A stretch of DNA of 64,000 bases from Candidatus Acidiferrum sp. GTDB lineage: Bacteria; Methylomirabilota; Methylomirabilia; Rokubacteriales; CSP1-6. Of the stretch, positions 13,069 through 35,879 are shown one piece after another. Positions within the stretch are counted from its first letter, which is position 1; every line of letters starts with the position of its first letter. A model generated the notes under the pieces. It searched no databases. It was not told the origin of the DNA and was given only the letters and a program-made list of their open reading frames with translations. The stretch is from positions 3,883-67,882 of the forward strand of contig DATHGT010000197.1 of the NCBI GenBank assembly GCA_035317605.1. Reading direction: 5' to 3'. The position numbers were made by a program, and so were the translations under genes.

Positions 13069-13116
13069 GGGGCACTCCTTTGTGCGACAGCGAGTTCCGT
13101 GATCGCGTCGGTTCGG

Positions 13117-13465: not shown

Positions 13466-13494
13466 AGAGTAGAGCGGTCAGACCACCGTGTCAA
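13466..13494 (-). promoter_or_regulatory. Sigma70 promoter for the fdh operon with a TGGTCTGACC palindrome in the spacer
   Basis: Minus strand TTGACA-cggtggtctgaccgctc(17 nt)-TACTCT. Confidence 0.7.
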
Positions 13495-13498
13495 GAAT

Positions 13499-13831
13499 TC
13501 AATGACGGCGGTCGGGTCGGTCGTCCATCTTCTGATACTCCGTCAGATGGGCTTCCAGCAGGGCGCGCGCCCCTTGGTCGTCGCCGGCTTCCAGCAGGCC
13601 GACCACCAGCCGACGGAGGTCCGGTGCGACGACGGACCCATTGGTCACGGGATTGTAGAAGCGCTCGAGCTCGAGAAGGATCCCCTTGACCCGAGGGAGG
13701 TCGTCGAGGTGTTCGAGCGCTTCTCGCATCATCCGGACTTCGTCGTTCTCGCGGGGCCGGAGCTTGCCCCGGCGGAAGACCAGCCGGTCGTTGGGATCGT
13801 CGTGATGTTCAGGGACGCCAGCCCCGGCCAT
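13499..13831 (-). CDS. Hypothetical protein (110 aa)
   Basis: Helical protein-like ORF; TAGAAT 8 nt upstream of the ATG. Confidence 0.55.
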   Translation of the reverse strand: MAGAGVPEHHDDPNDRLVFRRGKLRPRENDEVRMMREALEHLDDLPRVKGILLELERFYNPVTNGSVVAPDLRRLVVGLLEAGDDQGARALLEAHLTEYQKMDDRPDRRH

Positions 13832-13882
13832 GGGACGGGATTCTATCGCACGCGCGGCCCGGCCACGAGCCTTCCCTCTCGA

Positions 13883-14656
13883 TCAGTCGGGTTGGCCCGC
13901 CGACTGGACCCCGAGCACGATCCCGTCCCCCGCGTAGAGGTTGAAGCCGTCCGGTCTCACGTAGCCGCACACCGTGATGTTGAGCTGCTCGGCCAAGCCG
14001 ACGGCCATCTCCGTCGGCGACGTCCGCGAGGCGACGATGGGCACGCCCATGCGCGCGGCCTTGAGCAGCATCTCCGACGACACGCGTCCGGTCGAAAGGA
14101 GAATGCGGTCGACGGTCGAAATATCGCGCAGCAGCGCCTCGCCCTTGATCTTGTCGACGGCGTTGTGGCGGCCGACGTCCTCGGCCACGAGAAGCACGCC
14201 CTCGGGATCGGCGAGGGCCGCGCCGTGGATGCCCCGCGACGCCTTGTACAGAACGGCGGACGCGAACAGGTCCCGCATGCGCGCGGCCAGCTGGGCCGCC
14301 GAAATCTGGAGTCCGCTGGCCAATCGGGGAAACAGACGGTGGTCGATCCGAAACGTGATCCCGCCGCCGCAACCCGAGGTCAGGATCCGCTCCGTCGGCA
14401 GATCCACCGGATGGTCGAGGGTCACGTCTACACGCCCGTCGACCGGCGAGACGTCGAGGGTCTGGATCTCGCGCACGTCGCCGATGACCATCTCCATCCA
14501 CAGGTAGCCGATCACCAGCGCTTCGAGCTGGACGGGCGTACAGAGCAGCGTGAGGAATCGAGTCCCGTTGACGTAGACGGTCAGCGGCTGCTCACGGACG
14601 ACCTCGCCCGTGATCTCCTCCACCCGCTCACCGCGCACCTTCAGATACGTCCGCAT
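13883..14656 (-). CDS. fdhD: Formate dehydrogenase sulfurtransferase FdhD
   Basis: EQPLTVYVNG, TSGCG, GIHGAAL, EDVGRHNAVDK, STGRVSSEM. Confidence 0.95.
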   Translation of the reverse strand: MRTYLKVRGERVEEITGEVVREQPLTVYVNGTRFLTLLCTPVQLEALVIGYLWMEMVIGDVREIQTLDVSPVDGRVDVTLDHPVDLPTERILTSGCGGGITFRIDHRLFPRLASGLQISAAQLAARMRDLFASAVLYKASRGIHGAALADPEGVLLVAEDVGRHNAVDKIKGEALLRDISTVDRILLSTGRVSSEMLLKAARMGVPIVASRTSPTEMAVGLAEQLNITVCGYVRPDGFNLYAGDGIVLGVQSAGQPD

Positions 14657-14680
14657 CTCGCTCGCATTCTAGTCCATTGA

Positions 14681-14812
14681 CGTCGGGGGGAGCGAACGCG
14701 GGGTCTGAGCGAAGGGGCTACGCCCCCTCGCGCTCCCCGGCCCGACACCCCCCACCGCCGCGAGTTCGAATCTCGAGCGCGGATGGACGGATTGCGGCGG
14801 CAAAGCCGCCGC
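14681..14812. repeat. REP/BIME-like multi-hairpin intergenic element
   Basis: Contains gcgaaggggc-TAC-gccccctcgc nested in ggggagcg...cgctcccc, and a perfect gcggcggc-AAA-gccgccgc hairpin at 14794-14812. Confidence 0.6.
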
Positions 14813-14834
14813 TCGAAAAACGACGTTCGACGAT

Positions 14835-15572
14835 TCAATACATCACCCGCAGGAGGGTCAGGCCGTGAGCGGGCGCGGTGGGGCCGGCGCGGCGGCGGTC
14901 GCGGCTGGCCAGCACGTCGGCGAGCCAGCCCGGCTCGCGGGCGCCGCGCCCGACCTCGACGGCGCTGCCCACGATGTTGCGGACCATGTGGTGCAGGAAG
15001 CGGTCGCCGGAGACGAGCACGGCGATCCGATCGCGACGACGGAGCACGTGCAGCGCGCGCACCGTGCACGTCGGCTCGTGCTCCCGCCCCGGCGCCGCGC
15101 AGAACGCGCTGAAGTCGTGACGGCCGCGCAGCGGCTCGAGGGCGCACCGCATGCGCTCGACGTCGAGCCGAAGGGGCACGGACCAGGCATAGCGCAGCAG
15201 AAAGGGCGACGGCGTCGACCCGTTCTCGATGAGATAGCCGTAGCGCTTGCCGAGCGCCGCACGCCGCGCATCGAAACGCTCGTCCGCCTCCGCGCACGCC
15301 ACCACCCGAATGTCCCGCGGCAGCGTGGCGTTCAGCGCCCGCTTGACCACGTCGGCGGGGACCTCCCGCCCGGCCCGGATCGACACGGCCTGTCGCAGCG
15401 CGTGGACGCCCGCGTCGGTGCGACTGGCCCCGGTCACGCGAATGCCGTCGCCGAGCAGCGCCTGCGCCGCCGTCACCACGAGCCCCTGCACCGTCGGCCG
15501 CCCGGGCTGGATCTGCCATCCGGAATAGGCGGTCCCGTCGTACGCGAGCACGACGCGCCAAGCCCGGCTCAC
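14835..15572 (-). CDS. truA: tRNA pseudouridine(38-40) synthase
   Basis: YDGTAYSGWQIQ, ASRTDAGVHA, GRHDFSAF, RFLHHMVRNIVG, TAPAHGLTL. Confidence 0.96.
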   Translation of the reverse strand: MSRAWRVVLAYDGTAYSGWQIQPGRPTVQGLVVTAAQALLGDGIRVTGASRTDAGVHALRQAVSIRAGREVPADVVKRALNATLPRDIRVVACAEADERFDARRAALGKRYGYLIENGSTPSPFLLRYAWSVPLRLDVERMRCALEPLRGRHDFSAFCAAPGREHEPTCTVRALHVLRRRDRIAVLVSGDRFLHHMVRNIVGSAVEVGRGAREPGWLADVLASRDRRRAGPTAPAHGLTLLRVMY

Positions 15573-15588
15573 CGTGATCGACCCGGGG

Positions 15589-15879
15589 CTATCGTCGACG
15601 GGGCAGCACGGTCAGCCAGACGACCACCACCGCGAAGACGAGCACGACGTTGACGGCGGCCTGCCACGGCGAAACGGACGAGGGGCGAACACCATGGCGG
15701 GCGAGGAAGTCCTGACGGCTGAAATCCTTCGGCTCGTAGTAGAACGGGTTGTAGCCGCGGCTGGCGTCGATCAGGTTGACGATCCAGGGCACCAGCACGT
15801 AGGTGACCACCACGATCGTGAGCAGGACGGCGAGATGAAAGCGGCCTCGCCGGTGGTAGTAGCGCCGCAATCGACCCAA
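15589..15879 (-). CDS. Small two-TM membrane protein of unknown function
   Basis: 96 aa, TTG start, two hydrophobic helices around the loop YNPFYYEPKD; fills the asd-truA gap. Confidence 0.6.
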   Translation of the reverse strand: MGRLRRYYHRRGRFHLAVLLTIVVVTYVLVPWIVNLIDASRGYNPFYYEPKDFSRQDFLARHGVRPSSVSPWQAAVNVVLVFAVVVVWLTVLPRRR

Positions 15880-15896
15880 TGCGCCGGCCCTCGCGA

Positions 15897-16904
15897 TCAG
15901 AATCCGAGCAGCACTTCCGCGATCTGAACGGCGTTCGTGGCCGCGCCCTTCCGCAGCTGATCGCCCACCACCCAGAAGTTGAGCGCGCTGGGGTGCGAGA
16001 GGTCGTCACGGATGCGCCCGACGTAGCAGTCGTCCTGGCCCTCCACGGTGACCGGCATCGGATACCGTCCCTGCGCGGGATCGTCCCACAGCCGGAGCCC
16101 CGGGAACCGCTCGAAGAGCGCGCGGGCGCGCTCGGCGCCGATGGGCGTCTCGGTCTCGGCGTTCACCGCCACCGAATGGCAGGTGAAGACCGGCACCCGC
16201 ACGGTGGTGGGCGAAATCCGAAGGTCGGGCGCCTCGAGGATCTTGCGGGTCTCGTTGACGAGCTTGCGCTCCTCGCCGGTGTACCCGTCTGACCCGAACG
16301 CGTCGATGTGAGGGATCAGGTTGAAGGCGATCTGGTGCGGGAAGAACCGCGGCGTGATCGCCTCGCCCCGCGCCCACGCGAGCGTCTGCTGGCGCAGATC
16401 CTCGATCCCGTTCACGCCCGCCCCCGACACCGCCTGGTAGCTGGTGGCCACGACCCGGCGCAGGCGACCGGCGTCGTGGAGCGGCTTGAGCGGCATGACC
16501 GTGACGATGGTGGTGCAGTTCGGCGAGGCCACGATGCCCCGGTGAGTCTTGACCGCGTGCGGGTTGATCTCGGGGACGACCAGCGGAACGTCCGGGTCCA
16601 TCCGGAAGGCGTTGGACTTGTCGACCACGGTGGCGCCGGCCGCGACCAGCACGGGCGCGATCTCGCGGGACTGGGCGGAGCCGGCCGAGCAGAACGCGAT
16701 CTCGAGGCCCTTGAAGGCGGAGGCCTCCACCCGCCGCACGGGGAGGGCGTCGCCCCGAAAGGTCACGGTCTTGCCCACCGAGCGCTCGGAGGCGAAGCAC
16801 CGCAGCTCGCGCACGGGGAACTTTCGCTCCTCCAGGATGCGCAGGGTCATCTGCCCGGCCGCCCCGGTGGCGCCGACGACCGCTACCCGGACTCCGCTCG
16901 GCAT
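15897..16904 (-). CDS. asd: Aspartate-semialdehyde dehydrogenase
   Basis: VAVVGATGAAG, SPNCTT, SYQAVSGAG, IAFNLIPHI, TVRVPVF, DQLRKGAATNA. Confidence 0.96.
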   Translation of the reverse strand: MPSGVRVAVVGATGAAGQMTLRILEERKFPVRELRCFASERSVGKTVTFRGDALPVRRVEASAFKGLEIAFCSAGSAQSREIAPVLVAAGATVVDKSNAFRMDPDVPLVVPEINPHAVKTHRGIVASPNCTTIVTVMPLKPLHDAGRLRRVVATSYQAVSGAGVNGIEDLRQQTLAWARGEAITPRFFPHQIAFNLIPHIDAFGSDGYTGEERKLVNETRKILEAPDLRISPTTVRVPVFTCHSVAVNAETETPIGAERARALFERFPGLRLWDDPAQGRYPMPVTVEGQDDCYVGRIRDDLSHPSALNFWVVGDQLRKGAATNAVQIAEVLLGF

Positions 16905-16909
16905 CGGTC

Positions 16910-17989
16910 TCACCCCTCCAGAGCGCCCACGATCAGGTCGCCCATCTCGCGGGTGCCCACCGTCTTGCCGCCGGGCTCGGCGATGTCGCGCGTGCGGTGG
17001 CCGTTCTCGAGCACCCGCCGCACCGCCCGCTCGACGCGATCGGCGTCGTCGACCCGGTCCAGCGAGTAGCGCAGCAGCATGGCGGCCGACAGGACGGCCG
17101 CGATCGGGTTGGCCACGCCCTGCCCCGCGATGTCCGGCGCGGTGCCGTGGACCGGCTCGTAGAGTCCGACCTTGCCGCCCATCGAGGCGGACGCGAGCAT
17201 GCCCATCGAGCCGGCGAGGATCGCCGCCTCGTCGGACAGGATGTCGCCGAAGGTGTTCTCGGCCACGATGGTGTCGAACTGGGTGGGCCGCTGCACCAGC
17301 GCCATCGAGCAGTTGTCGACCAGGATGTGCTCGAGCGTCACGTCCGGATAGTCCCGGCCCACGCGGGTGACGACCTCGCGCCAGAGCGTGGACACGACCA
17401 GCACGTTGGCCTTGTCGACCGAGGTGAGCTTGCGGCGGCGCTTGCGCGCGACCTCGAAGGCCACGCGGGCCACCCGCTCGATCTCCCCTGACGTGTACAC
17501 CATGGTGTTGACCGCGCGCGCGCTGCCGTCGGCGAACTGCTCGATACCACGCGGCTCGCCGTAATAGAGACCGCCGGTGAGCTCGCGGATCACCATGATG
17601 TCCGTGCCCTCGACGACCGAGCGCTTGAGCGGCGAGGCGTCGACGAGCATCGGGAAGCACACGGCCGGCCGGAGGTTGGCGAAGAGGTCCAGGTCCTTGC
17701 GAATGGCCAGCAACCCTCGCTCGGCCTTCTGCTCCTGCGGCAGGTGATCCCACTTCGGGCCGCCCACGGCGCCGAACAGGATGGCCTGCGACGCTCGGCA
17801 CAGCTCGAGCGTCTCCTTCGGCAGCGGTCCGCCGGTGGCGTCGATGGCCGAGCCCCCGATCAGGGCCGGAGTGAACGCGAAGCCGACTCCGGAGCCCTTG
17901 CCCACGGCCTCCAGCACCCGCACGGCCTCGCCCGTCACTTCGGGACCGATGCCGTCGCCCGCGAGCACCGCGATGCGATAGGTCGTCAT
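16910..17989 (-). CDS. leuB: 3-isopropylmalate dehydrogenase
   Basis: [52 protein letters not shown]. Confidence 0.96.
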
Positions 17990-19533
17990 CAGGGACCTAC
18001 CTCCTTCACGCGCGGGGCCGACGGCCGCACTACCCGGTTGAGCGCGCTCAGGTACGCGCGGGCGCTGGCCTCGATCACGTCCGTCGACGACCCGCGCCCG
18101 GAGACCACGGCGCCGTCGAAGTCGATCTTCATCGAGACCTCGCCGATCGCGTCCTTGCCGGACGTGGCCGACCGCAGCGAGTAGTCGAGCAGCCGGCCCT
18201 TGAGCCCGGTGATGGCCTCGATGGCGACCACCACCGCGTCGACCGGTCCGTCGCCCACGCCCGAGTCCTGGAAGACCTGCTCGTCGCGCCGCAGCTTGAC
18301 CGTCGCCGACGGCACCACGCCGGTGCCGCTGATCACGTGCAGGTACTCGAGGGCGTACGTCTCCCGGCCCTGGGTCGCCTCGTCGGTGACGATGGTCATG
18401 AGGTCCTCGTCGAAGACCTCCTTCTTGCGATCGGCCAGGTCCTTGAACTTCTTGAACGCGCGATCGAGGTCGGAGCCGCTCAGGTCGAAGCCGAGGTCCT
18501 TGAGCCGCGCGGCCAGCGCGTGACGCCCGGAGTGCTTGCCGAGCACGAGCTTGTTGGACGGGCGCCCGATGTCCTCCGGCCGCATGATCTCGTAGGTGAG
18601 CTTCTCCTTGAGCACGCCGTCCTGGTGGATGCCCGCCTCGTGGGCGAAGGCGTTCTCGCCCACGATGGCCTTGTTGGGCTGCACGTGGATGCCGGTGATG
18701 TGGGAGAGCAGCCGCGACGACTTGAAGATCTCCTCGGTGCGGACGCGGGTCTCGGCGCCGAAGAAGTCCTTGCGCGTCGTGAGCGCCATCACGATCTCCT
18801 CGAGCGAGGCGTTGCCGGCCCGCTCGCCGATCCCGTTGATCGTGCACTCGATCTGGCGCGCGCCGTTCATGACCGCGGTGAGCGAGTTGGCTACGGCCTG
18901 CCCGAGGTCGTTGTGGCAGTGCACCGAGAGCACCACGTTCTCCATTCCCCGCACGCGCTCGCGGATCTTGCCGATGCGCTCACCCCACTCGGCGGGAATC
19001 GCGTAGCCCACGGTGTCGGGAATGTTGATGGTGCGGGCGCCGGCCTCGATGACCGCCGACAGCACGTCACACATGTAGTCGAAGTCCGTCCGCGAGGCGT
19101 CCTCGGGCGAGAACTCCACGTCCTCGCAGTAGGCGCGGGCGTGGCGTACCGCATCCACCGACGCCTTCAGGATCTCCGCGCGCGACTTGCGCAGCTTGTA
19201 CTTGAGATGAATGTCGGAGGTGGCCACGAACGTGTGGATGCGCGGCTTGCGGGCGTACTTCACGGCCTCCCAGCAGCGGTCGATGTCCCCCAGCCCGACC
19301 CGGGAGAGCCCGCAGATCGCGGGCGCGCCGTCCAGGGTGCCGACTTGCCGCGCCACCTCGCGCGTCGCTTCGAAGTCCTCCTCGGAGGAGATCGGAAAGC
19401 CGGCCTCGATGACGTCGACGTTCAGGCGGGCCAGCTGCCGGGCCATCTCGAGCTTCTCCATCGTGTTCATCGAGAATCCTGGCGACTGCTCGCCGTCCCG
19501 CAGCGTGGTGTCGAAGATGATGACGCGATCCAT
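17989..19533 (-). CDS. leuA: 2-isopropylmalate synthase
   Basis: [51 protein letters not shown]. Confidence 0.96.
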
Positions 19534-19551
19534 ACGTCCCCCCTGAAGCGT

Positions 19552-20397
19552 CTACGACGATTCTTTGGTGCTCAGCTCCCCGTGCCCCGCCGCGGTGGTC
19601 CGTCCCACGACCAGCCAGCGCACCGGACCGGAGAGCGCGTAGATCCCGAAGAGCAGGAACGGAAACAGCTCGTAGTTGGTGGCCACGATCATCACCGCGA
19701 GGACGACCACGAGCAGCGTCTGCGCCGGGCGACGCCGCGCGAAGTCGATCTCCTTGAAGCTCCAGTACCGAAAGGTGGAAACCATCAGCAGCGCGGTCAG
19801 ATACGTCCCGATCGCGATGGCCACCAGCATCCAGCGCGCCGCCTCCTCCCGATGGAGCAGCAGCACCGTGGAGACGAGGACGCCGGCCCCGGCCGGCGTG
19901 GACAGGCCGACGAAGAAGCGCCGGTCGGTGACTCCCGTGTAGACGTTGAAGCGGGCCAGTCTCAGCGCGCCGCAGATCACGAACAGGAACGCGGCGAACC
20001 ACGCCGGGCGGCCGAGGCCGGCGAGCGCGAACGAGTAGATCAGGAACGCCGGCGCCACGCAGAAGGAGACGACGTCGGCCAGCGAGTCGAACTCCACCCC
20101 GAACTGGCTGGTCGCCTTCATCAGCCGCGCGACCCGCCCGTCGAGCATGTCCATGACCATGGCCACGAAGATCGCCAGCGAGGCCTCGAAGTAGCGGGAC
20201 TCGACGGTCAGCAGCAGCGCGAAGAAGCCGCAGAAGAGATTGCCGGTGGTCAAAAGACTCGGCAGCAGGAAGATCCCCCGGCCGCGCATCTTCTGACGAA
20301 GCGGCCCACGGCGGCCCCCCCCGAGACCCCGATCGATCGCGCCGGCGAAGCCGCCGCCCGACCCGGCGAGTCGCCGCTGTCGCAGCCGTCCTCTCAT
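19552..20397 (-). CDS. pssA: CDP-diacylglycerol--serine O-phosphatidyltransferase
   Basis: LPSLLTTGNL, DMLDGRVAR...SQFGVEFDSLADVVSF, RLARFN; start chosen from ATGA overlap with the psd stop. Confidence 0.92.
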   Translation of the reverse strand: MRGRLRQRRLAGSGGGFAGAIDRGLGGGRRGPLRQKMRGRGIFLLPSLLTTGNLFCGFFALLLTVESRYFEASLAIFVAMVMDMLDGRVARLMKATSQFGVEFDSLADVVSFCVAPAFLIYSFALAGLGRPAWFAAFLFVICGALRLARFNVYTGVTDRRFFVGLSTPAGAGVLVSTVLLLHREEAARWMLVAIAIGTYLTALLMVSTFRYWSFKEIDFARRRPAQTLLVVVLAVMIVATNYELFPFLLFGIYALSGPVRWLVVGRTTAAGHGELSTKESS

Positions 20398-21029
20398 CCG
20401 AGCACCCCGAGCACCGAGACCCCGCCGGTGACCCGGTCGCCCACGCGGACGCGCACGTCGGTGCCGCGCGGCATCGAGCAATCCGTGCGAGAGCCGAAGC
20501 GGATCATCCCGTAGCGCTGGCCCGCCTCGAGCTTGTCGCCCGCGCCGACCCGGCACACGATCCGCCGCGCGACGATCCCGGCGATCTGGGTCACGGTCAC
20601 CCGCGCGTGCTCGCCCTGCAGGTGGACGGAGCACCGCTCGTTCATCTCGCTCGCGTCGGCCTTGTAGGCGGCGATGAACCGCCCGGTGGTGTAGGTCGTC
20701 CCCACCACGAGGCCCCCGATGGGCGCGCGGTTGACGTGCACGTCCAGCGGCGAGAGGAAGATCGACACGCGGATCGACGGACCGACGAACGGATCGAGGG
20801 CGTCGGCGACGTCGGTCACCCGCCCGTCCGCCGGAGAGAGCACCGCGCGGGTGAGCACCGGGACTTCACGCTCGGGATCCCTGAAGAACCCGAGCGAGGC
20901 CAGCGACGCCGCCGCGAACGGCCACGCCAGCCGGCGACGGCCGGTGAGGAACAGCGCGGCCGCGGCGACGGCGGACCCAAAGATGAAGGGCCAGCCCTCA
21001 CGGGCTATTGGTATGGGGGGCCTAGCCAC
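20394..21029 (-). CDS. psd: Phosphatidylserine decarboxylase proenzyme
   Basis: IAREGWPF, FFRDPER, SPADG, IFLSPLDVHVNR, IRFGSRTD with LGS/FGS-type cleavage site. Confidence 0.94.
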   Translation of the reverse strand: MARPPIPIAREGWPFIFGSAVAAAALFLTGRRRLAWPFAAASLASLGFFRDPEREVPVLTRAVLSPADGRVTDVADALDPFVGPSIRVSIFLSPLDVHVNRAPIGGLVVGTTYTTGRFIAAYKADASEMNERCSVHLQGEHARVTVTQIAGIVARRIVCRVGAGDKLEAGQRYGMIRFGSRTDCSMPRGTDVRVRVGDRVTGGVSVLGVLG

Positions 21030-21140
21030 GGGCCCCCCAAGCCCCTCTTTCGATCACTGAAGGGCTCGGCTCGCCTCCCGAGCGCGGCTCACCTCGCACT
21101 GCCACGTCCGTCGCGCCCTGGCAAAGCCATGGCGCTCCTC
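21013..21140. repeat. Composite REP/BIME-like element (three units), overlapping the psd start and the ilvC stop
   Basis: Unit B ggggcttggggggcccgtggctaggcccccca (minus strand); unit C gctcgcctc...ctcgcactgc at 21069-21102; unit A ggcAAAgcc hairpin at 21113-21140. Confidence 0.7.
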
Positions 21141-22146: not shown

Positions 22147-22189
22147 GACTATCCTTTCCTGATCGTTATCGGTCCGTCCCCGCAATCCC

Positions 22190-22263: not shown

Positions 22264-22268
22264 TGTGA

Positions 22269-22847: not shown

Positions 22848-22848
22848 C

Positions 22849-27305
<4,457 letters not shown>

Positions 27306-27412
27306 AGGCTCGGGTCTCCGTCCGTGAGGACCGAAAAAGTCTTTCAAGACTACAGGATACCTCGCGCGAGTGTCAACGAAGCGGCCACGTCTCGCCCCCC
27401 AGGAAATGCGAA

Positions 27413-27440
27413 GGGCCACGGGTCGAACGACCCGTGGCCC
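27413..27440. terminator. Perfect GC-rich hairpin, probable terminator
   Basis: gggccacgggtcg-aa-cgacccgtggccc (13-bp inverted repeat); only a weak U-tract on the minus strand. Confidence 0.55.
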
Positions 27441-27492
27441 TGAAGTGCTGCTCTCCAGCCACGGGCCGCCTGCCCGTGGCATCCGTCGCGTG

Positions 27493-27573
27493 TTAGTCCG
27501 CGGATGCTCCGGGCAGGCCCGGCAGTACCAGGAGAATCAGTCCCAGCGACAGCGTCCGCGACATCGTGTGCAT
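27493..27573 (-). CDS. Putative 26-aa hydrophobic small ORF (signal-peptide-like)
   Basis: MHTMSRTLSLGLILLVLPGLPGASAD, between a sigma70 promoter and a hairpin. Confidence 0.35.
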   Translation of the reverse strand: MHTMSRTLSLGLILLVLPGLPGASAD

Positions 27574-27582
27574 ATCGGGATG

Positions 27583-27611
27583 ACTCTACGCGACGGTCAT
27601 AACGGTGTCAA
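27583..27611 (-). promoter_or_regulatory. Sigma70 promoter
   Basis: Minus strand TTGACA-N17-TAGAGT; the -35 box overlaps the FadR stop codon. Confidence 0.55.
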
Positions 27612-28393
27612 TCCGAAACGGGGCGTGGTGGCGGCGTCGAGGTCCTGCCGAACGCCTCCGGGCCGAGCACGAGGGCTTCGACGCCGAGCAAGTGATCGAG
27701 CATCGCCTGGCGGGCCGCGTCCTGGTCGTGCACGGTGATCGCCGCCAGGATCCGCCGGTGGCTTTCGTGCGAGCGAGTCGGGCGGCCCGGCGTGCTCAGC
27801 GATTCCTCGCGGCTCTGGGTGAGCAGGTCCATGATGCCGTGCACGAGCCGGCTGATCGCGCGATTGTGAGCCGCGGAGGCGATCGCGGAGTGAAAATCCG
27901 CGTCCTGCACGAGTCCCGTGCGGCCGGCCGTCACTTCCTTGGCCTGCTCGTCGAGGATGCGGGCCATCTCCTCCACCTCGTGCGGCGTCGCGCGGAGCGC
28001 GGCGAACGCGGCGATCGACGGCTCGAGCAGCCGGCGGGCCTCGAACAGCTCGCCGATCGCCTCGCGCTGGGACAGCATCACCAGCGCCAGCGGCTCGATC
28101 AGCGATTCCACCGAGACCTCGCGCACGAACGTCCCCTCGCCCGGCCGGATCTCGATGAGCCCGAGGCTCTCCAGCGCCCGCAGCGCTTCGCGAACCGACG
28201 TGCGGCTGACCACGAACTTCTCGGCGAGGTCGCGCTCCGGCGGCAGCTGATCGCCGCTCTTGAGCCGTCCCTCGGAGATCATCGCCTTCACCTGCCGCAC
28301 GATCGCCTCGTAGATGCGGGTCGACTTGATGGGCTCGATGCCCATCTCGCGCTCGGCCTTGGCCGCCGGTCGACGACGATCGGGCAGCGTCAT
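27608..28393 (-). CDS. GntR/FadR-subfamily regulator (GlcC/LldR/PdhR-like)
   Basis: GDQLPPERDLAEKFVVSRTSVREALRALE, RPGEGTFV, FCD domain DADFH...AAHN...H..I; alternative start at 28345. Confidence 0.93.
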   Translation of the reverse strand: MTLPDRRRPAAKAEREMGIEPIKSTRIYEAIVRQVKAMISEGRLKSGDQLPPERDLAEKFVVSRTSVREALRALESLGLIEIRPGEGTFVREVSVESLIEPLALVMLSQREAIGELFEARRLLEPSIAAFAALRATPHEVEEMARILDEQAKEVTAGRTGLVQDADFHSAIASAAHNRAISRLVHGIMDLLTQSREESLSTPGRPTRSHESHRRILAAITVHDQDAARQAMLDHLLGVEALVLGPEAFGRTSTPPPRPVSD

Positions 28394-29085
28394 AGCTTCT
28401 CGGGCACCCTCGCCCGCTTGCCCATGGCCAGCCACCAGCCGACCGCCGTCACCACGGCGCCGATGGCGATGGGCAACGGCCGGTGCAGGAACGCCGCGGG
28501 CTCGCCCAGCCACCGCACCACGATGGGATCCTCGAGCATCATCTCGGCCGCGACGTATCCCAAGAGTCCGCCTCCCAGCCACACGATCCAGATGTAACGG
28601 TTCATCAGGCGCGCGAGCAGGCCCGCGCCCCACACCACGATCGGCAGCGACAGCCCGATCCCGAACATGATCAGCGTGAAGTCCCCGTGCGCGGCCGCGG
28701 CGATCGCCAGCACGTTGTCGAGGCTCATCGTAACGTCGGCCACGACGATGATCCAGATGGCCTCCAGCAGCGAGGTGCCGTGGCGCACGTTGCCCTCGCC
28801 CTCCGCCTCGGGACGCACCAGCCTCAGCGCGATCCACACCAGCACCGCCCCGCCCACGAACTGCAGGAACGGAATCCTCAGCAGCACGCTCACGATGCCC
28901 ACGAAGATCAAGCGCAGCGCGACCGCCCCCAGGGCCCCCCACAGCTGGCCGGCGATCCGCTGTCGCCGGGGCAGCGTGCGCACGGCCAGCGCGATCACCA
29001 GCGCGTTGTCACCGGACAGGAGCAGGTTCAGCACGCTGATGCTGAGCAGTCGCAGCCAGAACTCCGGAGTGGCCAGCCAGTCCAT
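28390..29085 (-). CDS. TerC-family (YjbE-like) membrane protein
   Basis: NLLLSGDNALVIALA, IIVVADVTMSLDNVLAIAAAA, GIGLSLPIVVWG. Confidence 0.9.
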   Translation of the reverse strand: MDWLATPEFWLRLLSISVLNLLLSGDNALVIALAVRTLPRRQRIAGQLWGALGAVALRLIFVGIVSVLLRIPFLQFVGGAVLVWIALRLVRPEAEGEGNVRHGTSLLEAIWIIVVADVTMSLDNVLAIAAAAHGDFTLIMFGIGLSLPIVVWGAGLLARLMNRYIWIVWLGGGLLGYVAAEMMLEDPIVVRWLGEPAAFLHRPLPIAIGAVVTAVGWWLAMGKRARVPEKL

Positions 29086-29097
29086 GGGGCGGTTCGG

Positions 29098-30621
29098 CTA
29101 TCCGTGGGAGGCGGAGGGCGCGGCCGGGTTGGGCCGGCCGCGCAGGCGGCGCCACCACGGCGTGAGGATCGGCAGCGCGAAGAAGAAGAGCGCCGCCGCG
29201 GTGATGACGGCGGCGATCGGACGGGTCGCAAAGATCTTGAGCGACCCTTGCGACATGATCAAACTCTGCCGGAGCGCGTTCTCCGCCATGTCACCGAGGA
29301 CCAGAGCTAGCACGAGCGGGGCCAGCGGATAGTCGAGCTTCTTGAACACGTAGCCCACGATCCCGAAGATGAGCATGTACCAGATGTCGATCATCGAGTT
29401 GTGTACGGCGTAGGCCCCGATCGCGCACACCACCACGATCAGCGGGGTGAGGATCGCGAACGGGATGCGAAGGATCGCCGCGAAGAACGGGACGAAGGCC
29501 AGCACCATCAGGACCCCGATCACGTTGCCGGTGTACATGCTGGCGATCAGCCCCCAGACGAAATCGGGCTTGTCCTTGAACAGCATGGGGCCGGGCTGGA
29601 GGCCCCAGATGATGAGCCCTCCCAGCATCACCGCCGCGGTCGGCGAGCCGGGGATGCCGAGCGTGATCATCGGCAGCATGGCCGCGACCCCGGCCGCGTG
29701 CGCGGCCACCTCCGGGGCCACGATTCCCTCCAGCTCGCCCTTGCCGAACCGCTCGGGGTGCCGCGAGAACCGCTTGGCGAACGCGTAGCTCATGAACGAG
29801 GCCGGCGTGGCGCCGCCCGGCTTGAAGCCCATCCAGAAACCGATGATCGAGCCACGCACGAACGTGCGGTAGTAGCGCGGCAAGATCTTCCAGGTGTCCA
29901 GGACCACCCGCAGGTTCATCTCCGTCCGGGCGCCCTCGAAGCGCAGGCCCTCCTCGACCGACAACAGGATTTCGCCGATGCCGAAGAGGCCGATGACGGC
30001 CACGATGAAGTCGAAGCCCTTCATGAGCTCCGTGAAGCCAAAGGTCATCCGGAGCTGACCGGTCACGATGTCGAGGCCGACCGCAGCCAGGATGAACCCG
30101 ATGAGGATGGAGACCAGCGACTTGAGCGGGTTGCCGCCGCCGAGCCCCACGAAGCTCGAAAACGTCAGGAACTGGATCGCGAAGAACTCCGGCGGGCCGA
30201 ACTTGAGCGCGATCTCGGCCAGGAGGGGGGCGAAGAACGTGATCAGCACGATCGAGAAGAACGCGCCCACGAACGACGAGGTGAAGGCCGCGGTCAGGGC
30301 CTGGCCCCCCTGTCCCTGCTTGGCCAGCGGGTATCCGTCGAAGGTGGTGGCCACCGACCACGGCTCGCCGGGGATGTTGAACAGGATCGACGTGATCGCT
30401 CCGCCGAAGAGCGCCCCCCAGTAGATCGAGGTGAGCAGGATGATGGCGGAGGTCGGCGGCATCGTGAACGTGAGCGGCAGCAGGATGGCGACGCCGTTGG
30501 CGCCGCCGAGACCGGGGAGCACGCCGATGATCGTGCCGAGCGTGATGCCCACGACGGCCATGAACAGGTTGAACGGCGTCACGGCGACCTGGAAGCCGAG
30601 GAGAAGGTTCTCGATCCCCAC
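29098..30621 (-). CDS. tctA: Tripartite tricarboxylate transporter large membrane subunit
   Basis: GTIIGVLPGLG, YWGALFGGAITSILFNIPG, ATTFDGYPLAKQG, LGIPGS. Confidence 0.95.
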   Translation of the reverse strand: MGIENLLLGFQVAVTPFNLFMAVVGITLGTIIGVLPGLGGANGVAILLPLTFTMPPTSAIILLTSIYWGALFGGAITSILFNIPGEPWSVATTFDGYPLAKQGQGGQALTAAFTSSFVGAFFSIVLITFFAPLLAEIALKFGPPEFFAIQFLTFSSFVGLGGGNPLKSLVSILIGFILAAVGLDIVTGQLRMTFGFTELMKGFDFIVAVIGLFGIGEILLSVEEGLRFEGARTEMNLRVVLDTWKILPRYYRTFVRGSIIGFWMGFKPGGATPASFMSYAFAKRFSRHPERFGKGELEGIVAPEVAAHAAGVAAMLPMITLGIPGSPTAAVMLGGLIIWGLQPGPMLFKDKPDFVWGLIASMYTGNVIGVLMVLAFVPFFAAILRIPFAILTPLIVVVCAIGAYAVHNSMIDIWYMLIFGIVGYVFKKLDYPLAPLVLALVLGDMAENALRQSLIMSQGSLKIFATRPIAAVITAAALFFFALPILTPWWRRLRGRPNPAAPSASHG

Positions 30622-30624
30622 GGA

Positions 30625-31104
30625 TCAGAACCCGAGCCAGGTTTCGAGGGGGCCCTTGGGCATCGGCACCAGGAACCAGCGCTCGAAGACGATGAACGTC
30701 ACCACGGGCACGAGCACGGCGAGCGCGATCACCGCGCGCCAGTCGTGCCGCCCGACCCACCGCATGTAGAACGCGAGGTAGATCGCCCCCGAAACGTAGA
30801 GGCCCAGACCCCAGGGCAATCCGGGCGGAGCGATCAGCAGCACGAAGGCGGCCATGGGCAGCACGACCTGAAGGACCGGGCGAAGCTGCTCGCGCGTCAC
30901 GAAGCTCTGGATCGCGCTCCGGCGCAGCGCCTGAATGAGCACCCCCACTGAGGCGAGGAGGAGGAGCACGGCCAGCCAGAACGGAAAGAATCCGCTGCGC
31001 GGCCCGTCCGGGCCCCAGCCTACGCCGAGCCGGAGGGCGTCCCAGAGCACGAGACCCCCGAACAGCATCAGCACCACGGCGGTGGCGAGATCGGCGAGGC
31101 GCAT
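30625..31104 (-). CDS. tctB: Tripartite tricarboxylate transporter small membrane subunit
   Basis: GPRSGFFPFW, 4-5 TM helices, C-terminal VFERWFLVPMPKG. Confidence 0.9.
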   Translation of the reverse strand: MRLADLATAVVLMLFGGLVLWDALRLGVGWGPDGPRSGFFPFWLAVLLLLASVGVLIQALRRSAIQSFVTREQLRPVLQVVLPMAAFVLLIAPPGLPWGLGLYVSGAIYLAFYMRWVGRHDWRAVIALAVLVPVVTFIVFERWFLVPMPKGPLETWLGF

Positions 31105-32121
31105 CTATTTCTTGAGCAAGCCGCCCTTCGCCATCAGATCGCGGTGCAGCGCCTCCGCTTCCTCTACCCACTTCACGTACTCGGCCCCGCTGGCGAAGGC
31201 CGGCTTCAGCGCGCCCTGCTTGAGGTAGTCCTTGAACTCCGCGGTGTCGTACACCTTCTTGAGGAAGCCGACGTACCAGTCGACGGCCTCTTTGTTCATG
31301 CCGGGAGCGCCGAAGATCCCGCGCAGCATCAGATACTGGATGTCGATCCCGAGCGCCTCTTTGACGGTCGGGATGTCCTTCCACTCCGGATCCGGGATGC
31401 GGGCGCCGTCGAACAGCGCGAGCGGCCGGACGCGGCCGGCCTTCCAGTGGCTCACGCACTCGATCGGGTTGTTGACGGTCGAATCCACGTGCTTGCCCAC
31501 CAGGTTGACGCAGACCTCGCCACCGCCCTTGAACGGCACGTAGGTGAACTTGACATTGAGCGCATGGTCGAGCTGGACCGTGATGATCTGGTCTTCCTGA
31601 GCCGAGCCGGTGCCACCCATGATGCACTGCCCACCCTGGCGGTCCTTGCACTGCTTGGCGGTCACGGCGGCCAGGTATTCCTTCGCGGTCTTGTACGGCG
31701 TCTCCGCGTTGACCCAGAGAATGAACTGGTCGAGCGCGAGCCGCGCGACCGGAGTGAAGTCCTTCCAGCTGAAGGGAAGCCCGGTGGCGAGCGGCGTGGT
31801 GAAGAGATTCGACAGCGTGATGATGATCGAATAGTTCCGATCATCACCCTTCTTTTCCTTCACGTGCAGAAAGCCCTCGCCACCCGCGCCACCTGACTTG
31901 TTGATCACGATCAGGGGCCGGGGCGAGAGCTTGTGCTTCTCGGCGATGCCGGCGATGAGGCGGGCCATCTGGTCGGCGCCCCCACCGGTGCCGGCGGGAA
32001 TCACGAACTCGATGGGTTTGGTCGGCTCCCACGCGACGGCGGCTGCGCCAACGCCACCGACGAAGACCAGGGCCAGCGATGCCACGATCGACCACACGGC
32101 GAGACGAAGAGTCCGTTTCAT
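31105..32121 (-). CDS. tctC: TctC/Bug-family periplasmic substrate-binding protein
   Basis: Signal peptide, WEPTKPIEFVIPAGTGGGAD, INKSGGAG, YVPFKGGGE. Confidence 0.93.
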   Translation of the reverse strand: MKRTLRLAVWSIVASLALVFVGGVGAAAVAWEPTKPIEFVIPAGTGGGADQMARLIAGIAEKHKLSPRPLIVINKSGGAGGEGFLHVKEKKGDDRNYSIIITLSNLFTTPLATGLPFSWKDFTPVARLALDQFILWVNAETPYKTAKEYLAAVTAKQCKDRQGGQCIMGGTGSAQEDQIITVQLDHALNVKFTYVPFKGGGEVCVNLVGKHVDSTVNNPIECVSHWKAGRVRPLALFDGARIPDPEWKDIPTVKEALGIDIQYLMLRGIFGAPGMNKEAVDWYVGFLKKVYDTAEFKDYLKQGALKPAFASGAEYVKWVEEAEALHRDLMAKGGLLKK

Positions 32122-32165
32122 CTCAACGCCCTCCCCTTCGAGGCTTGCGGGCTCACCAAACATGG

Positions 32166-32201
32166 AAAAGGCCGGGCGCCCGCCCGGGCACCCGGCCCCT
32201 T
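32166..32201 (-). terminator. Rho-independent terminator-like hairpin between the OFOR beta gene and tctC
   Basis: Minus strand ggccgggtgcccg...cgggcgcccggcc followed by TTTT. Confidence 0.55.
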
Positions 32202-32235
32202 CGACTCAGGTCACGTGTCCGAAACCGCCCCCGCG

Positions 32236-33267
32236 TTACTGCGTGCCGAGAGCGGTCTTCGCGGCGTCGAGTCGCTTGAACGGCACGACCGCCGGAATCT
32301 CCCACGTGTTCCACATCTCGTCGACCTTGGCCTGGAAGTGTCCGAGGTCCTCCTCGGTGAAGTGCGCGAACCGTCCCTGCTTGAGCAGGTACTCGCGGAC
32401 CGGCTTGCGCGGACGACCCTCGACGAGGGCCTTGGTCTTGCCGTAGTACTTCACCACGCCGTCTTCGACCTCGTACAGCGGGAAGATGCCGGTCTCGATG
32501 GCGAGCTCGCCCAACTCGTGCGAGAGCATCGGGTCGTAGTCCCAGCCCTTGGGGCACGGATCGAGCGAGTGGATGAATGTCGGGCCGCCGATCGCGAGCG
32601 CCCGGCGGACCTTGTTCATCATCTCGACCGCGTACGACCCGCAGACGGTGGCCACGTACCGGCACTCCGGGTGCCCGGCCGCCATCATGCCCGCCATGTT
32701 CTTCTTCCAGCGCTTGTGCATGATGCGGTGGACGCTGCCGGGCGGGCTGAATGTCGTATTCGCGCCATACGGCGTCGATCCCGACAGCTGGATGTCGGTG
32801 TTGGCGTACGACTCGTTGTCGTACATCAGGATGAGGGAGTTGTACTCCTTGTGGGTCAGCGTCGCGGAAATCGCGCCGAGCCCCATGTCGGCCCCCCCGC
32901 CGTCTCCGCAGAACGCGATGACGTTGATCGGCTCCGCTTTCATCTTCCCTTTCGCCATCAACGCCTTGAGGCCGGCGGCGGTTCCCAGCGCGGCGGAACC
33001 CGACGAGCCGAGCTGGGTGTGCATCCACGGCACCACCCAGGGCGTGGTGTAGTACGTGGTGTTCGCCACGTACATGCAGCCGGTGGAGCCCAGCACGATC
33101 GTGCGGGGACCGGCCGCCTTTACCATCAGCTTCATGATGAGGGCCGACTCGCAGCCCTGGCACGTGCGGTGTCCGGACGTGAAGTACTCCTCGATGGTCA
33201 CCCGCTTGATCCCGCGGAAGGCCTCGAGGACCTGGGTCGCGTTGCTGAACGTCGTGGTCTCAGCCAT
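32236..33267 (-). CDS. 2-oxoacid:ferredoxin oxidoreductase beta (TPP-binding) subunit, oxalate oxidoreductase-like
   Basis: GHRTCQGC, TGCMYVANT, GDGG, YDNESYANT, TPYGANTTF, GHPE..YVAT, PCPKGW. Confidence 0.88.
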   Translation of the reverse strand: MAETTTFSNATQVLEAFRGIKRVTIEEYFTSGHRTCQGCESALIMKLMVKAAGPRTIVLGSTGCMYVANTTYYTTPWVVPWMHTQLGSSGSAALGTAAGLKALMAKGKMKAEPINVIAFCGDGGGADMGLGAISATLTHKEYNSLILMYDNESYANTDIQLSGSTPYGANTTFSPPGSVHRIMHKRWKKNMAGMMAAGHPECRYVATVCGSYAVEMMNKVRRALAIGGPTFIHSLDPCPKGWDYDPMLSHELGELAIETGIFPLYEVEDGVVKYYGKTKALVEGRPRKPVREYLLKQGRFAHFTEEDLGHFQAKVDEMWNTWEIPAVVPFKRLDAAKTALGTQ

Positions 33268-33288
33268 GAGCGTATCTCCTATTGATCC

Positions 33289-34518
33289 TTATTCACGAAC
33301 GCCCAGCCAGTGGGTCTTTGCGTCGGACTTGCCGGCTTTGGCGGCATTGTAGCAGAGGTCCGTCGCGTGATAGACGTCTTCCAGCGTCACCTCACGGCCG
33401 CCCAGGCCGCAGATGAAGCTGAGCAGCGGGGGCCGCTTGTCCGCGTTGTACATGGCCGCGCGGATCTCGGTGGCCACCACGCCGGAGTTGAAGGGCGAGC
33501 CGAACGAGTAGTCGCGGTCGATGACCCCGATGGCCTGGGCCTTCGAGAGCACGTCGACGATCTTTTCGGTGGCGAAGGGCCGGAACCAGCGCAGCCGCAG
33601 GAGGCCGACCTTCTTGCCCTGGGCCCGCATGTTGCGGATGCCGACCTTGATGGGCAGCGAGATCGTCCCCATGCCGACCAGGATGATCTCGGCGTCCTCG
33701 GTCATGTACTCCTCGAACCACGGGTTCTCGGGGCCACGGCCGAACACCTTGCGGAAGTCCGCGTAGGCCTCCTCGATGACGGTCGTGGCCCGCTTCATGG
33801 CCTCGTCGTTCTGGCGCCGGATCTCGATGACCCAGTCCTCGTTGGCCTGGGGCGCGACCGTGATCGGGTTGTCGGGATGAAGCAGCAGGTCGCCGCGATC
33901 GTACCGGGGCAGGAACTTGTCCACCTTCGACTTGGGCGGCACCATGGTCAGCGCCTGGGAATGGGTCAGGAAGGCGCCGTCGGCCGAGATGGCCAGGGGC
34001 AGCAGCACCCGCCGGTCCTCGGCCACTCGATAGGCGATCAGCGTGGTGTCGATCGCCTCCTGCGAGGTGTCGATCCAGCAGAGCATCCAGCCGAGGTCAC
34101 GGACGAAGAGCGCGTCGTTGTGCTCGACCCCGAACGCGCCGGGATCGTCGAGGGCCCGGTTCCCGACCAGGCACACCATCGGCACCCGCAGCGGCGGGGT
34201 CACGACCAGGCACTCCATCGCGTACGCCCAGCCCACCCCCGACGAGCCGCAGAAGACCCGCGCGCCCACCGTGGAGGCGTGCTTGACGATCTCGAACTGG
34301 CTGTGCTCGCCCTCGGCCACGATGTACTCGGCCACCAGCTGGCCGTTGGCGATCTTCTTGGCGATGGCCTGGATGACCGTGTCGTAGGGACGGATCGGAT
34401 ACCCGGTGACCACGTCGATGTCGGCGAGGGTCAGGCCCTCGGCGACCGCTTCGCTGCCCGAGATCAGAAGCTCTTTGTCTTCGGTCTGTGCCGCTGCCGT
34501 CTGCGTCGCGACTGCCAT
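33289..34518 (-). CDS. OFOR alpha subunit, oxalate oxidoreductase-like
   Basis: SD AAGGAG; GYPIRPY (Arg instead of the PFOR YPITP Thr), EGEHSQ, GSSGVG, NRALDDPGAFGVEH, GLGG. Confidence 0.88.
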   Translation of the reverse strand: MAVATQTAAAQTEDKELLISGSEAVAEGLTLADIDVVTGYPIRPYDTVIQAIAKKIANGQLVAEYIVAEGEHSQFEIVKHASTVGARVFCGSSGVGWAYAMECLVVTPPLRVPMVCLVGNRALDDPGAFGVEHNDALFVRDLGWMLCWIDTSQEAIDTTLIAYRVAEDRRVLLPLAISADGAFLTHSQALTMVPPKSKVDKFLPRYDRGDLLLHPDNPITVAPQANEDWVIEIRRQNDEAMKRATTVIEEAYADFRKVFGRGPENPWFEEYMTEDAEIILVGMGTISLPIKVGIRNMRAQGKKVGLLRLRWFRPFATEKIVDVLSKAQAIGVIDRDYSFGSPFNSGVVATEIRAAMYNADKRPPLLSFICGLGGREVTLEDVYHATDLCYNAAKAGKSDAKTHWLGVRE

Positions 34519-34540
34519 CGTCGTCTCCTTGGATATGTTC

Positions 34541-34590
34541 GCCTCGCACGGCGGGGCCCCAGCCCCGCGACGTGCTGCGGCTCGCCCTGC
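34541..34590. repeat. Degenerate REP-like element (unit C-related)
   Basis: Contains ctcgcac and ggctcgcc words shared with 21069-21102; internal gcgggg/ccccgc pairing. Confidence 0.4.
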
Positions 34591-35798
34591 TAGACCGTCT
34601 TGTGCGCGGCGTTCTCGCCGGGGATGCCCGCGGTGATCTCCACGCCGCCGAGGTCGAGGTCCTGCTTCAGCTCCTCGTCGTACTGGCCGCGGAAGCGGAA
34701 GCCGTGGGAGCGGACCGTCGCCTTCTTGTCGCCGATCTTGCCCAGCATCCACGTCTTGTACGCGGGCTTGTCCGTGCGCCACATCTCCCACTGGCTCGCG
34801 TTGTCGTCGAACTGCGACTCGTTGACCATCGTGATGCAGTTCTCGACGGGGCAGACCGCCTCGCACACCCCGCAGCCGCAGCACGACTCCATGTTGGCGT
34901 CGAAGGTGGCGTCGGGCATGACGTCGAAGCAGGAATCGGGGCACGAGATCCAGCAGAGGTTGCACTTCACGCAGGTGTCGAAGTCGATGACCGGGCGCAT
35001 GGTGCGGGTCGTGTACTTCTTGAAGTACGGGTTGCGCTCGGGCACGTACCCCTTGCCCTCTTCCTTGGGCTTGCCCACGGGGATGGCCGGGATGGTGACG
35101 CCTTCCCGCATTTCCCACCACTTGGGCTTCTCGAACGAGTACGGGACCTCGGTGTTGCCCTCGGTCATCTTGATGGCGCGGCTCTCCAGACGGTCGTACG
35201 CCTTGCGGGCGGAGGCGACCTTGAGCTCGGAGCCCCACTCCATCTCGCCGATGGCCTCGCACACGGCGTCCAGGCTCAGGAACGACGGGGCGATCTTGGC
35301 CAGCGCGCCGAGGATGCGCGCTTCGGTGTGGTCTTCCTTGTAGACCCAGAGGCCGGAGAAGGACGCTTTGGCCCGGATGAGGGCCAGCGTGTAGGGCGCC
35401 TCCTTCTTGTGGATGTCGCGCAGCAGCTCGTCGAACGACCGGATCGACGTCATCAGCAGGGTGCCGTTGGGTTGGGTGACCCGGTTGATGGGCTGCAGAC
35501 CGTACCAGGCCCATGACTCCACGCCTTTGGAGAGCGTGTCGTCGACGCAGATCGTGACGTCGACCGACTTCGGCTCGTAGCGGGCCATGTTCTGCTCGAG
35601 CTCTTCCTTCGTGTCGGCGACGATCGCGAAGTCCTTGGCGGGGATGCCGTTTCGCTGCGGGCTGTCGCCGTAGCGTCCGAACGCGATGCCCCATCGCCCG
35701 GCCTTCCGTGACGACAGCACGATGCCGCGGACGATACGCGCCGCGAGGTTCTTCTGGAAAATGCCCCGGTAGACGATTTCTGCGGTCAACGCTGCCAT
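34590..35798 (-). CDS. OFOR gamma-delta fusion subunit with two 4Fe-4S clusters (OOR delta-like)
   Basis: N-terminal gamma-like domain (YGDSPQRNGIP); C-terminal CVKCNLCWISCP and CCGCGVCEAVCP. Confidence 0.85.
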   Translation of the reverse strand: MAALTAEIVYRGIFQKNLAARIVRGIVLSSRKAGRWGIAFGRYGDSPQRNGIPAKDFAIVADTKEELEQNMARYEPKSVDVTICVDDTLSKGVESWAWYGLQPINRVTQPNGTLLMTSIRSFDELLRDIHKKEAPYTLALIRAKASFSGLWVYKEDHTEARILGALAKIAPSFLSLDAVCEAIGEMEWGSELKVASARKAYDRLESRAIKMTEGNTEVPYSFEKPKWWEMREGVTIPAIPVGKPKEEGKGYVPERNPYFKKYTTRTMRPVIDFDTCVKCNLCWISCPDSCFDVMPDATFDANMESCCGCGVCEAVCPVENCITMVNESQFDDNASQWEMWRTDKPAYKTWMLGKIGDKKATVRSHGFRFRGQYDEELKQDLDLGGVEITAGIPGENAAHKTV

Positions 35799-35836
35799 GC
35801 GCTCCTCCTGAGCCTGCTGGTCCTGAGCTGGTCCGG

Positions 35837-35879
35837 TGGTCCGACCAGAAGAATGCCCTTACACCGTCAGGGCTGTCAA
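35837..35879 (-). promoter_or_regulatory. Promoter of the OOR-like operon with a FadR-type operator TGGTCGGACCA at the predicted start site
   Basis: Minus strand TTGACA-N18-CATTCT-tc-TGGTCGGACCA-ccGGACCA; perfect TGGT-N3-ACCA palindrome at 35837-35847. Confidence 0.65.

Follow-up and report, generated by a model that had tools for sequence, protein, structure and literature searches.

A FadR-type operator common to the promoters of an oxalate oxidoreductase-like operon and a formate dehydrogenase operon in Rokubacteria

The DNA analysed here, called the window, is a stretch of 64,000 nucleotides from contig DATHGT010000197.1; its G+C content is 68.5% and its proteins have their nearest relatives in metagenome-assembled genomes of Candidatus Rokubacteria / Methylomirabilota. 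It holds two operons that concern us. The first encodes a three-subunit 2-oxoacid:ferredoxin oxidoreductase resembling oxalate oxidoreductase (OOR), a tripartite tricarboxylate-type transporter (TctCBA), a TerC-family membrane protein and, as its last gene, a regulator of the FadR subfamily. The second, the fdh operon, encodes a formate dehydrogenase and lies about 22 kb beyond the OOR-like run along the minus strand, on which all the relevant genes are found. The promoters of both operons carry an operator of the FadR type. The features are listed in Table 1, where, as throughout, coordinates are window positions.

Table 1. Genes and regulatory features of the two operons and of a leader unit adjoining the regulator gene
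Feature	Positions	Strand	Remarks
OOR-like promoter	35850-35879	-	TTGACA 35879-35874, 18-nt spacer, CATTCT (-10-like) 35855-35850
Composite operator, OOR-like operon	35829-35847	-	TGGTCGGACCA 35847-35837 and third half-site GGACCA 35834-35829
OOR-like 2-oxoacid:ferredoxin oxidoreductase, three subunits	32236-35798	-	identified with Pfam
OOR-like domain III+V/Fer4 subunit	34590-35798	-	
OOR-like alpha subunit	33289-34593	-	
OOR-like beta subunit	32236-33267	-	
TctC (31105-32163), TctB (30625-31104), TctA (29098-30621)	29098-32163	-	tripartite tricarboxylate-type transporter
TerC/YjbE-family membrane protein	28390-29085	-	in many, not all, related operons
FadR-subfamily regulator (GntR wHTH + FCD)	27608-28393	-	last operon gene; identified with Pfam
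Leader unit between regulator gene and PPDK	27413-27611	-	own promoter TTGACA-N17-TAGAGT
Leu-rich 26-codon ORF	27573-27493	-	conserved; MHTMSRTLSLGLILLVLPGLPGASAD
orf110	13499-13831	-	between FdhD and fdh promoter; no Pfam/NCBIfam family
fdh promoter	13466-13494	-	TTGACA 13494-13489, 17-nt spacer, TACTCT 13471-13466
fdh operator	13475-13485	-	TGGTCTGACCG in the -35/-10 spacer; plus strand CGGTCAGACCA
fdh operon	7303-13389	-	orf90, FdnG, FdnH, NrfD-type, FdhE-like
orf90	13117-13389	-	no Pfam/NCBIfam family; first gene past operator
FdnG-like catalytic subunit	9865-13068	-	Tat signal; Cys for Sec
FdnH 4Fe-4S subunit	9083-9862	-	
NrfD-type membrane subunit	8157 to ~9101	-	
FdhE-like protein	7303 to ~8169	-	
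wHTH, winged helix-turn-helix; PPDK, pyruvate phosphate dikinase; ORF, open reading frame.

Upstream of the OOR-like operon, whose first gene starts with the ATG at 35798, the DNA reads TTGACA-N18-CATTCT-ga-TGGTCGGACCA-CC-GGACCA. The 11-mer that begins 2 nt past the CATTCT box is a perfect TGGTN3ACCA palindrome, the form of FadR/LldR-type operators (general form TNGTN3ACNA). Together with the third half-site it makes up a composite operator that spans the likely transcription start and is the top match in the window to our position weight matrix (PWM; 30.7 bits). The fdh promoter reads TTGACA-cgg-TGGTCTGACCG-ctc-TACTCT; here the palindrome sits between the -35 and -10 boxes, agrees with the OOR-like one at 9 of 11 positions, has one mismatch to TGGTN3ACCA and is the second-best PWM match in the window, with a palindrome score of 16.9 of 20.1 bits. 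Both sites had been noted in a preliminary description of this DNA, together with a FadR-subfamily gene at the end of the transporter-containing run, and direct checking of the sequence confirmed their places, the 9/11 identity and the gene. A simple sigma-70 scanner called neither promoter, the -10 box being weak in the OOR-like one and matching at 3 of 6 positions in the fdh one. Because the scanner missed both boxes, we inferred the promoters by phylogenetic footprinting, from conserved TTGACA/TAnnnT boxes.

Conservation was assessed at both operons. On the OOR-like side we used 80 loci from species-representative genomes, retrieved by way of aligned homologs of the operon's first gene. All 80 Rokubacteria loci carried tGGTCnGACCA-(g/c)C(c)-GACCA within 200 nt upstream of that gene, and in all of them, from different species, the element tGGTCnGACCAgCcGACCA stood directly past the -10 box: it began 1-3 nt past a TAnnnT-type -10, with a conserved cTTGACA ahead. 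The core GGTCnGACC was exact in 75 of the promoters, and positions that the search pattern did not force were near-invariant (A at +9 in 80/80, C at +3 in 78/80, T at -1 in 64/80). Two of the promoters, L017 and L041, had a palindrome in the -35/-10 spacer in addition to the one past the -10 box, the pair lying about 60-110 nt ahead of the first gene.

On the fdh side, 80 metagenome loci were gathered through an alignment of FdnG orthologs, with four further look-ups, and sites were counted in the 71 loci with at least 300 nt of upstream DNA. GGTCnGACC occurred upstream of fdnG in 37 of these. Twenty-seven distinct promoters had the arrangement TTGAC-N3-7-palindrome-N2-7-TAnnnT, with the site inside the -35/-10 spacer as in the window; their flanks diverged among lineages while the palindrome was kept, and the layout cTTGAC...TAGnAT was conserved in related fdh loci. 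The site precedes operons with a catalytic Cys (FdnG 75-90% identical) as well as operons of the Sec type (61-65% identical), among them L164, a locus syntenic with the window, and the second operon of the tandem fdh pair in L083. The fdh promoter of L085 was of another kind, having no spacer site and carrying directly past its -10 box TGGCCTTACCATCAGACC, which is an extended operator in the OOR style, mismatched at two core positions; L161, from the same contig, has the canonical operator at its OOR promoter. Sites at both operons were paired within one genome only for the window and for this contig. The preliminary description had made its proposal depend on the motif being kept upstream of orthologous operons, and kept it was, at every OOR-like locus and at many fdh operons.

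Loci L085 (4810-4870) and L161 (9890-9945) belong to a single metagenome contig, Ga0184637_10000009, which holds both operons.

A plain count of matches in the window was not enriched: we found 3 at no more than one mismatch against 2.3 expected and, in a further count, 2 against 2.6. With so unremarkable a raw count the window alone cannot decide significance, and location and conservation are therefore decisive; we set the count aside, since related DNA showed a far lower empirical background and location matters more. Across 2.0 Mb of fetched related loci, GGTCnGACC had 75 copies in OOR promoters, 37 upstream of fdnG and 13 at other places. Twelve of the latter copies had no promoter-like context and one was the orf90/fdh promoter in L083. 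The perfect 11-mer was present in 83 copies in the same DNA, against 0-8 for 28 of 29 composition-matched palindromes. A PWM scan that looked for weaker sites with an upstream TTGAC, run over all 2.3 Mb of neighbourhoods, found no promoter class beyond OOR and fdh. The shared operator is real, conserved and well beyond chance. The two other near-matches in the window, at 40388-40398 and 50699-50709, were dropped as sites because they fall within genes. One control palindrome, GGCTTNAAGCC, had 38 copies in the 2 Mb (L001-L160), far above the other controls.

The regulator gene starts with an ATG that overlaps the TerC stop codon (ATGA). Its product has an N-terminal GntR winged helix-turn-helix domain (PF00392, E=1.6e-23, residues 30-92) and a C-terminal, all-helical FCD effector domain (PF07729, E=3.4e-27). 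The best PDB matches are the FCD proteins NanR, PdhR and LldR, and the best NCBIfam matches stay below the equivalog cut-offs (NanR 150/260, LldR 145/311, PdhR 131/330, GlcC 95/301); judged by these scores, the protein is a member of none of the four named equivalogs. Its DNA-reading segment PPERDLAEKFVVSRTSVREALRALESLG aligns with PSERALSETLGVSRSSLREALRVLEALG of LldR (2di3) and keeps ER, SR and R(E) at conserved DNA-contact places, FadR numbering having been mapped through the LldR alignment. The contact residues of FadR are Arg35, Arg45, Arg49 and Gly66, and they are conserved in LldR (PMC2602784). The operon order OOR(3)-TctCBA-(TerC)-FadR is conserved, with TctCBA syntenic in most related loci. 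A FadR-subfamily ortholog closes the operon in every locus that reaches far enough, also in L068, which has no transporter, and in loci with insertions. No FadR-type gene adjoined any fdh locus examined, and the only other GntR-family gene in the 2.3 Mb of neighbourhoods was a MocR/PdxR-like gene beside pdxST.

In the window this latter block occupies 36661-39813 and comprises a MocR/PdxR-like GntR-aminotransferase fusion (38239-39813), pdxS (37305-38201) and pdxT (36661-37302). Many loci keep this block upstream of the OOR-like operon, and its layout resembles that of the standard PdxR-pdxST module.

The positions of the sites, across the transcription start or in the -35/-10 spacer, fit repression. 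As the centre of the palindrome is a single base, no useful RNA hairpin would form, and the fdh copy lies in untranscribed DNA as well; a DNA-binding protein is thus the consistent reading. The two types of site can be tied together because L017 and L041 carry both, because the fdh promoter of L085 has an OOR-style site and because no FadR-type gene adjoins fdh. We therefore favour, with moderate confidence, a single autoregulated FadR/LldR-type repressor that would control both operons and probably switches them on together. As a dimer, the regulator would recognise TGGTCnGACCA. At its own operon it would occupy the composite site, i.e. the palindrome and the GACCA half-site 3 nt further on, and, being bound 1-3 nt past the -10 box, would block open-complex formation or promoter escape, which would make the OOR-like operon autoregulated. 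At the fdh operon it would bind the single palindrome between -35 and -10 and exclude RNA polymerase. Binding of a small carboxylate to the FCD domain would free both promoters; the releasing ligand would most likely be the acid that TctCBA takes up and the OOR-like enzyme oxidises, namely oxalate or something closely related. Import of the acid, its oxidation and periplasmic oxidation of formate would then be co-induced. That the operon-encoded FadR rather than a paralogue binds the fdh site, that it represses, and what its effector is, we infer from sequence; oxalate (or another C2 acid) is a reasonable candidate for the signal, though unproven.

Several observations weigh against control of both operons by one repressor. 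The fdh site of the window is imperfect (ACCG for ACCA) and has no third half-site; with the full model it scores 8.8 bits against 30.7 for the OOR-like site. About half of the fdh loci have no exact site, and control of fdh is thus not universal. The sites of L103, L106, L139 and the first operon of L083 are degraded, and none was found in L089, L098, L100, L108, L110, L112-118, L136 and L167; several AT-rich loci among those without an exact site probably come from other phyla. Finally, TGGTnnnACCA is a family-wide form, so that fdh could be served by a paralogous FadR-type protein from another locus.

We considered this last possibility, that the operon FadR serves its own operon only and a paralogous FadR-subfamily protein, responding for example to formate, lactate or pyruvate, acts at fdh. 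Its appeal is that TGGTN3ACCA is the general consensus of the subfamily, that the extra half-site always present at OOR-like sites is lacking at fdh sites, and that fdh sites have been lost in many lineages and OOR-like sites in none. Yet the 11-bp cores share one consensus, including the C/G beside the centre, the OOR promoters of L017 and L041 also have a spacer-type site, one fdh promoter has the OOR-style extended site, and no second FadR-type gene was found in the 2.3 Mb of neighbourhoods. Two separate regulators are therefore, in our judgement, rather unlikely, although they retain an appreciable share of the probability.

The nature of the signal depends on that of the enzyme. The layout of the OOR-like subunits (domains III+V, I+II and VI, with thiamine pyrophosphate and 4Fe-4S domains) is the one given for the OOR of Moorella thermoacetica (MtOOR; PMC5020499). 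The best PDB match of the alpha subunit is the Moorella OOR alpha chain (5c4i_A, E=1.7e-96, against 1.4e-60 for pyruvate:ferredoxin oxidoreductase). OOR is also the best NCBIfam match of all three subunits, each below its cut-off (alpha 372/500, beta 350/590, delta 86.5/230). The OOR-specific YPIRP motif (gYPIRPy) is kept in the alpha subunit. Arg31 alpha of YPIRP is described as replacing the Thr of the YPITP of pyruvate enzymes, and Arg31 and Asp116, the latter in a mobile 'bait-and-switch' loop, are named as central to the mechanism (PMC5020499). At the position of Asp116 the window protein has Ala, in a loop that reads ALDDPGAFG against TLDPPGDFG in MtOOR, and 77 of the 80 orthologs have the loop NRALDDPGAFGVEH.

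These data bear on a second alternative, in which the regulator is indeed shared but answers to pyruvate or lactate, like PdhR or LldR, the enzyme being a pyruvate-type 2-oxoacid:ferredoxin oxidoreductase and the formate dehydrogenase a co-controlled respiratory dehydrogenase, on the pattern of the E. coli PdhR regulon. LldR and PdhR are among the closest named families and the best PDB matches of the regulator, C. glutamicum LldR has an identical operator, a pyruvate phosphate dikinase (PPDK) gene lies immediately downstream, and the enzyme falls below the OOR equivalog cut-offs and has no Asp116. Set against this, OOR outscores PorA/PorB for the alpha subunit (372 against 333 bits) as well as for the beta subunit (350 against 286 bits), YPIRP stands in place of YPITP in 80 of 80 orthologs, and PPDK has its own promoter region and is set off from the operon by a leader/terminator unit. 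We regard a pyruvate or lactate signal as unlikely.

A difficulty of another kind attaches to oxalate itself. Genuine OOR oxidises oxalate, independently of CoA, to 2 CO2 and not to formate, which offers no evident metabolic reason for coupling it to formate dehydrogenase, a further point against the regulon as we read it. In a more novel reading, the OOR-like enzyme would be a related ferredoxin-dependent oxidoreductase of a C2 acid such as glyoxylate rather than of oxalate. Oxidative decarboxylation would then leave formate or formyl-CoA as a formyl unit, and the repressor common to both operons would couple two consecutive steps of an undescribed energy pathway from the C2 acid through formate to CO2, widespread in soil Rokubacteria; the change of Asp116 to Ala with the DD loop would be the specificity switch. 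We consider this proposal improbable.

One might also take the fdh palindrome for a chance resemblance without regulatory role, arising in a GC-rich genome, and cite the unenriched window counts for this. The idea is effectively refuted: 27 distinct orthologous promoters keep the palindrome at one and the same position although their flanks diverge, against 13 copies elsewhere in 2 Mb.

The preliminary description had assigned a third, weaker site to the same regulon. This sequence, GTTATGACC (GTTatgACC), is present at 27596-27604, in the spacer of a promoter at 27583-27611. It was not conserved in orthologous promoters and was absent among the PWM matches listed for the window. Of the one-regulon claim, the parts that stood are the conserved FadR-type operator common to the OOR-like and fdh promoters and the constant pairing of the FadR-subfamily gene with the OOR-like genes. 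We rejected GTTATGACC as a site of the FadR regulon, as it is not conserved and its promoter drives a Leu-rich, attenuator-like leader unit. In this unit a first segment (27517-27501, CCTGCCCGGAGCATCCG) pairs with a second (27485-27469, CGGATGCCACGGGCAGG), GCCCGTGGC follows at 27466-27458, and a terminator hairpin at 27440-27413 (GGCCACGGG...CCCGTGGCC) precedes a T-rich tail; the hairpins are mutually exclusive, and compensatory base changes in about 29 Rokubacteria loci back both stems. The true start of PPDK is the ATG at 27305, and this gene apparently has an additional promoter for itself. In its features the unit resembles a leader-peptide (Leu/branched-chain amino acid) attenuator ahead of PPDK-ilvBNC-leuA; it lies outside the FadR regulon. 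No Rfam family reached its gathering score anywhere in the window; the element past the regulator gene gave a weak match to Ms1 (20 bits against a gathering score of 162).

The catalytic subunit of the formate dehydrogenase is of the formate dehydrogenase-N type (FdnG); it matches TIGR01553 with 1151 bits (cut-off 814) and has Fe4S4 and molybdopterin domains, the Tat motif SRREFLK and the active-site Cys in RLCHSATV. The membrane subunit is of the NrfD type, not the cytochrome b FdnI. The gene order FdhD-orf110-orf90-FdnG is conserved in related loci.

At 1067 residues the window FdnG is longer than most full-length orthologs (1022-1035 residues), the extra length being a low-complexity insertion rich in Pro, Lys and Glu (..PPKEEPKVKKGEPGKPGQADSPYPAEMKKAAPPAK..) at roughly residues 145-180. 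The orf90 product carries a Cys-x-x-x-x-Cys-His stretch. In the tandem fdh operons of L083 (1400-9957), each of which has its own copy of orf90, the Cys-type operon (82% identical to the window FdnG) has a degraded operator, and the promoter spacer of the Sec-type operon (65% identical; TGA in place of the Cys codon) holds a perfect TGGTCAGACCA.

Rokubacteria (Methylomirabilota), abundant in soils, have not been cultured, and we know of almost nothing on their gene regulation; oxalate-like compounds and formate are major root and fungal products. Literature searches on OOR with GntR, and on Rokubacteria with oxalate or formate dehydrogenase, found no published description in the library that could be searched. 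A conserved regulon of two operons offers a testable hypothesis on how Rokubacteria sense and burn highly oxidised small acids (oxalate-like acids and formate). The analysis further points to a large clade of OOR-like enzymes (one scan yielded 554 relatives) whose active-site loop is unlike that of the sole characterised OOR.

A FadR/LldR-type repressor acting on a TGGTN3ACCA operator is a textbook principle; the present system is an uncharacterised case of it, with an unusual pair of targets and in an uncultured soil phylum. The closest named families by NCBIfam, E. coli PdhR, GlcC and NanR, have an FCD domain like the regulator described here and sense small carboxylates. Regulators of this kind typically lie in or beside the catabolic operon that they repress, and PdhR also controls respiratory-chain genes. 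NanR uses GGTATA repeats and not the palindrome found here. E. coli FadR, with its operators at fadB and fabA, shares the palindrome class TGGTN3ACCA, the winged helix-turn-helix family and repression by promoter occlusion, the last being proposed here; it differs in its acyl-CoA-binding C-terminal domain, and its match to the window regulator is weak (E=1.5e-5). M. thermoacetica OOR (PDB 5c4i, 5exd, 5exe) has the same three-subunit layout, and its YPIRP (Arg31) and Arg109 are conserved here; it has Asp116 where the window enzyme has Ala, it comes from an acetogen rather than a Rokubacterium, and the operon described here includes a tripartite transporter. C. glutamicum LldR is a FadR-subfamily GntR+FCD repressor as well. 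FadR-type proteins have the consensus TGGTN3ACCA, and the LldR operator TGGTCTGACCA, which lies across the transcription start, was confirmed by electrophoretic mobility shift assay and isothermal titration calorimetry (PMC2602784; PMC11472048). At the cgl2917-lldD operator the core TGGTCTGACCA is identical to the fdh-type site here, the position over the transcription start is that of the OOR-like promoter, a second, weaker site is adjacent in both systems, and the two regulators have the segment ER..VSR.S.REAL in common. The similarity of the proteins is modest (phmmer E=2e-18; 145 bits against the LldR cut-off of 311), and whereas LldR targets a lactate permease and dehydrogenase, the operators described here stand before an operon for an OOR-like oxidoreductase with its tripartite transporter and before a formate dehydrogenase operon.

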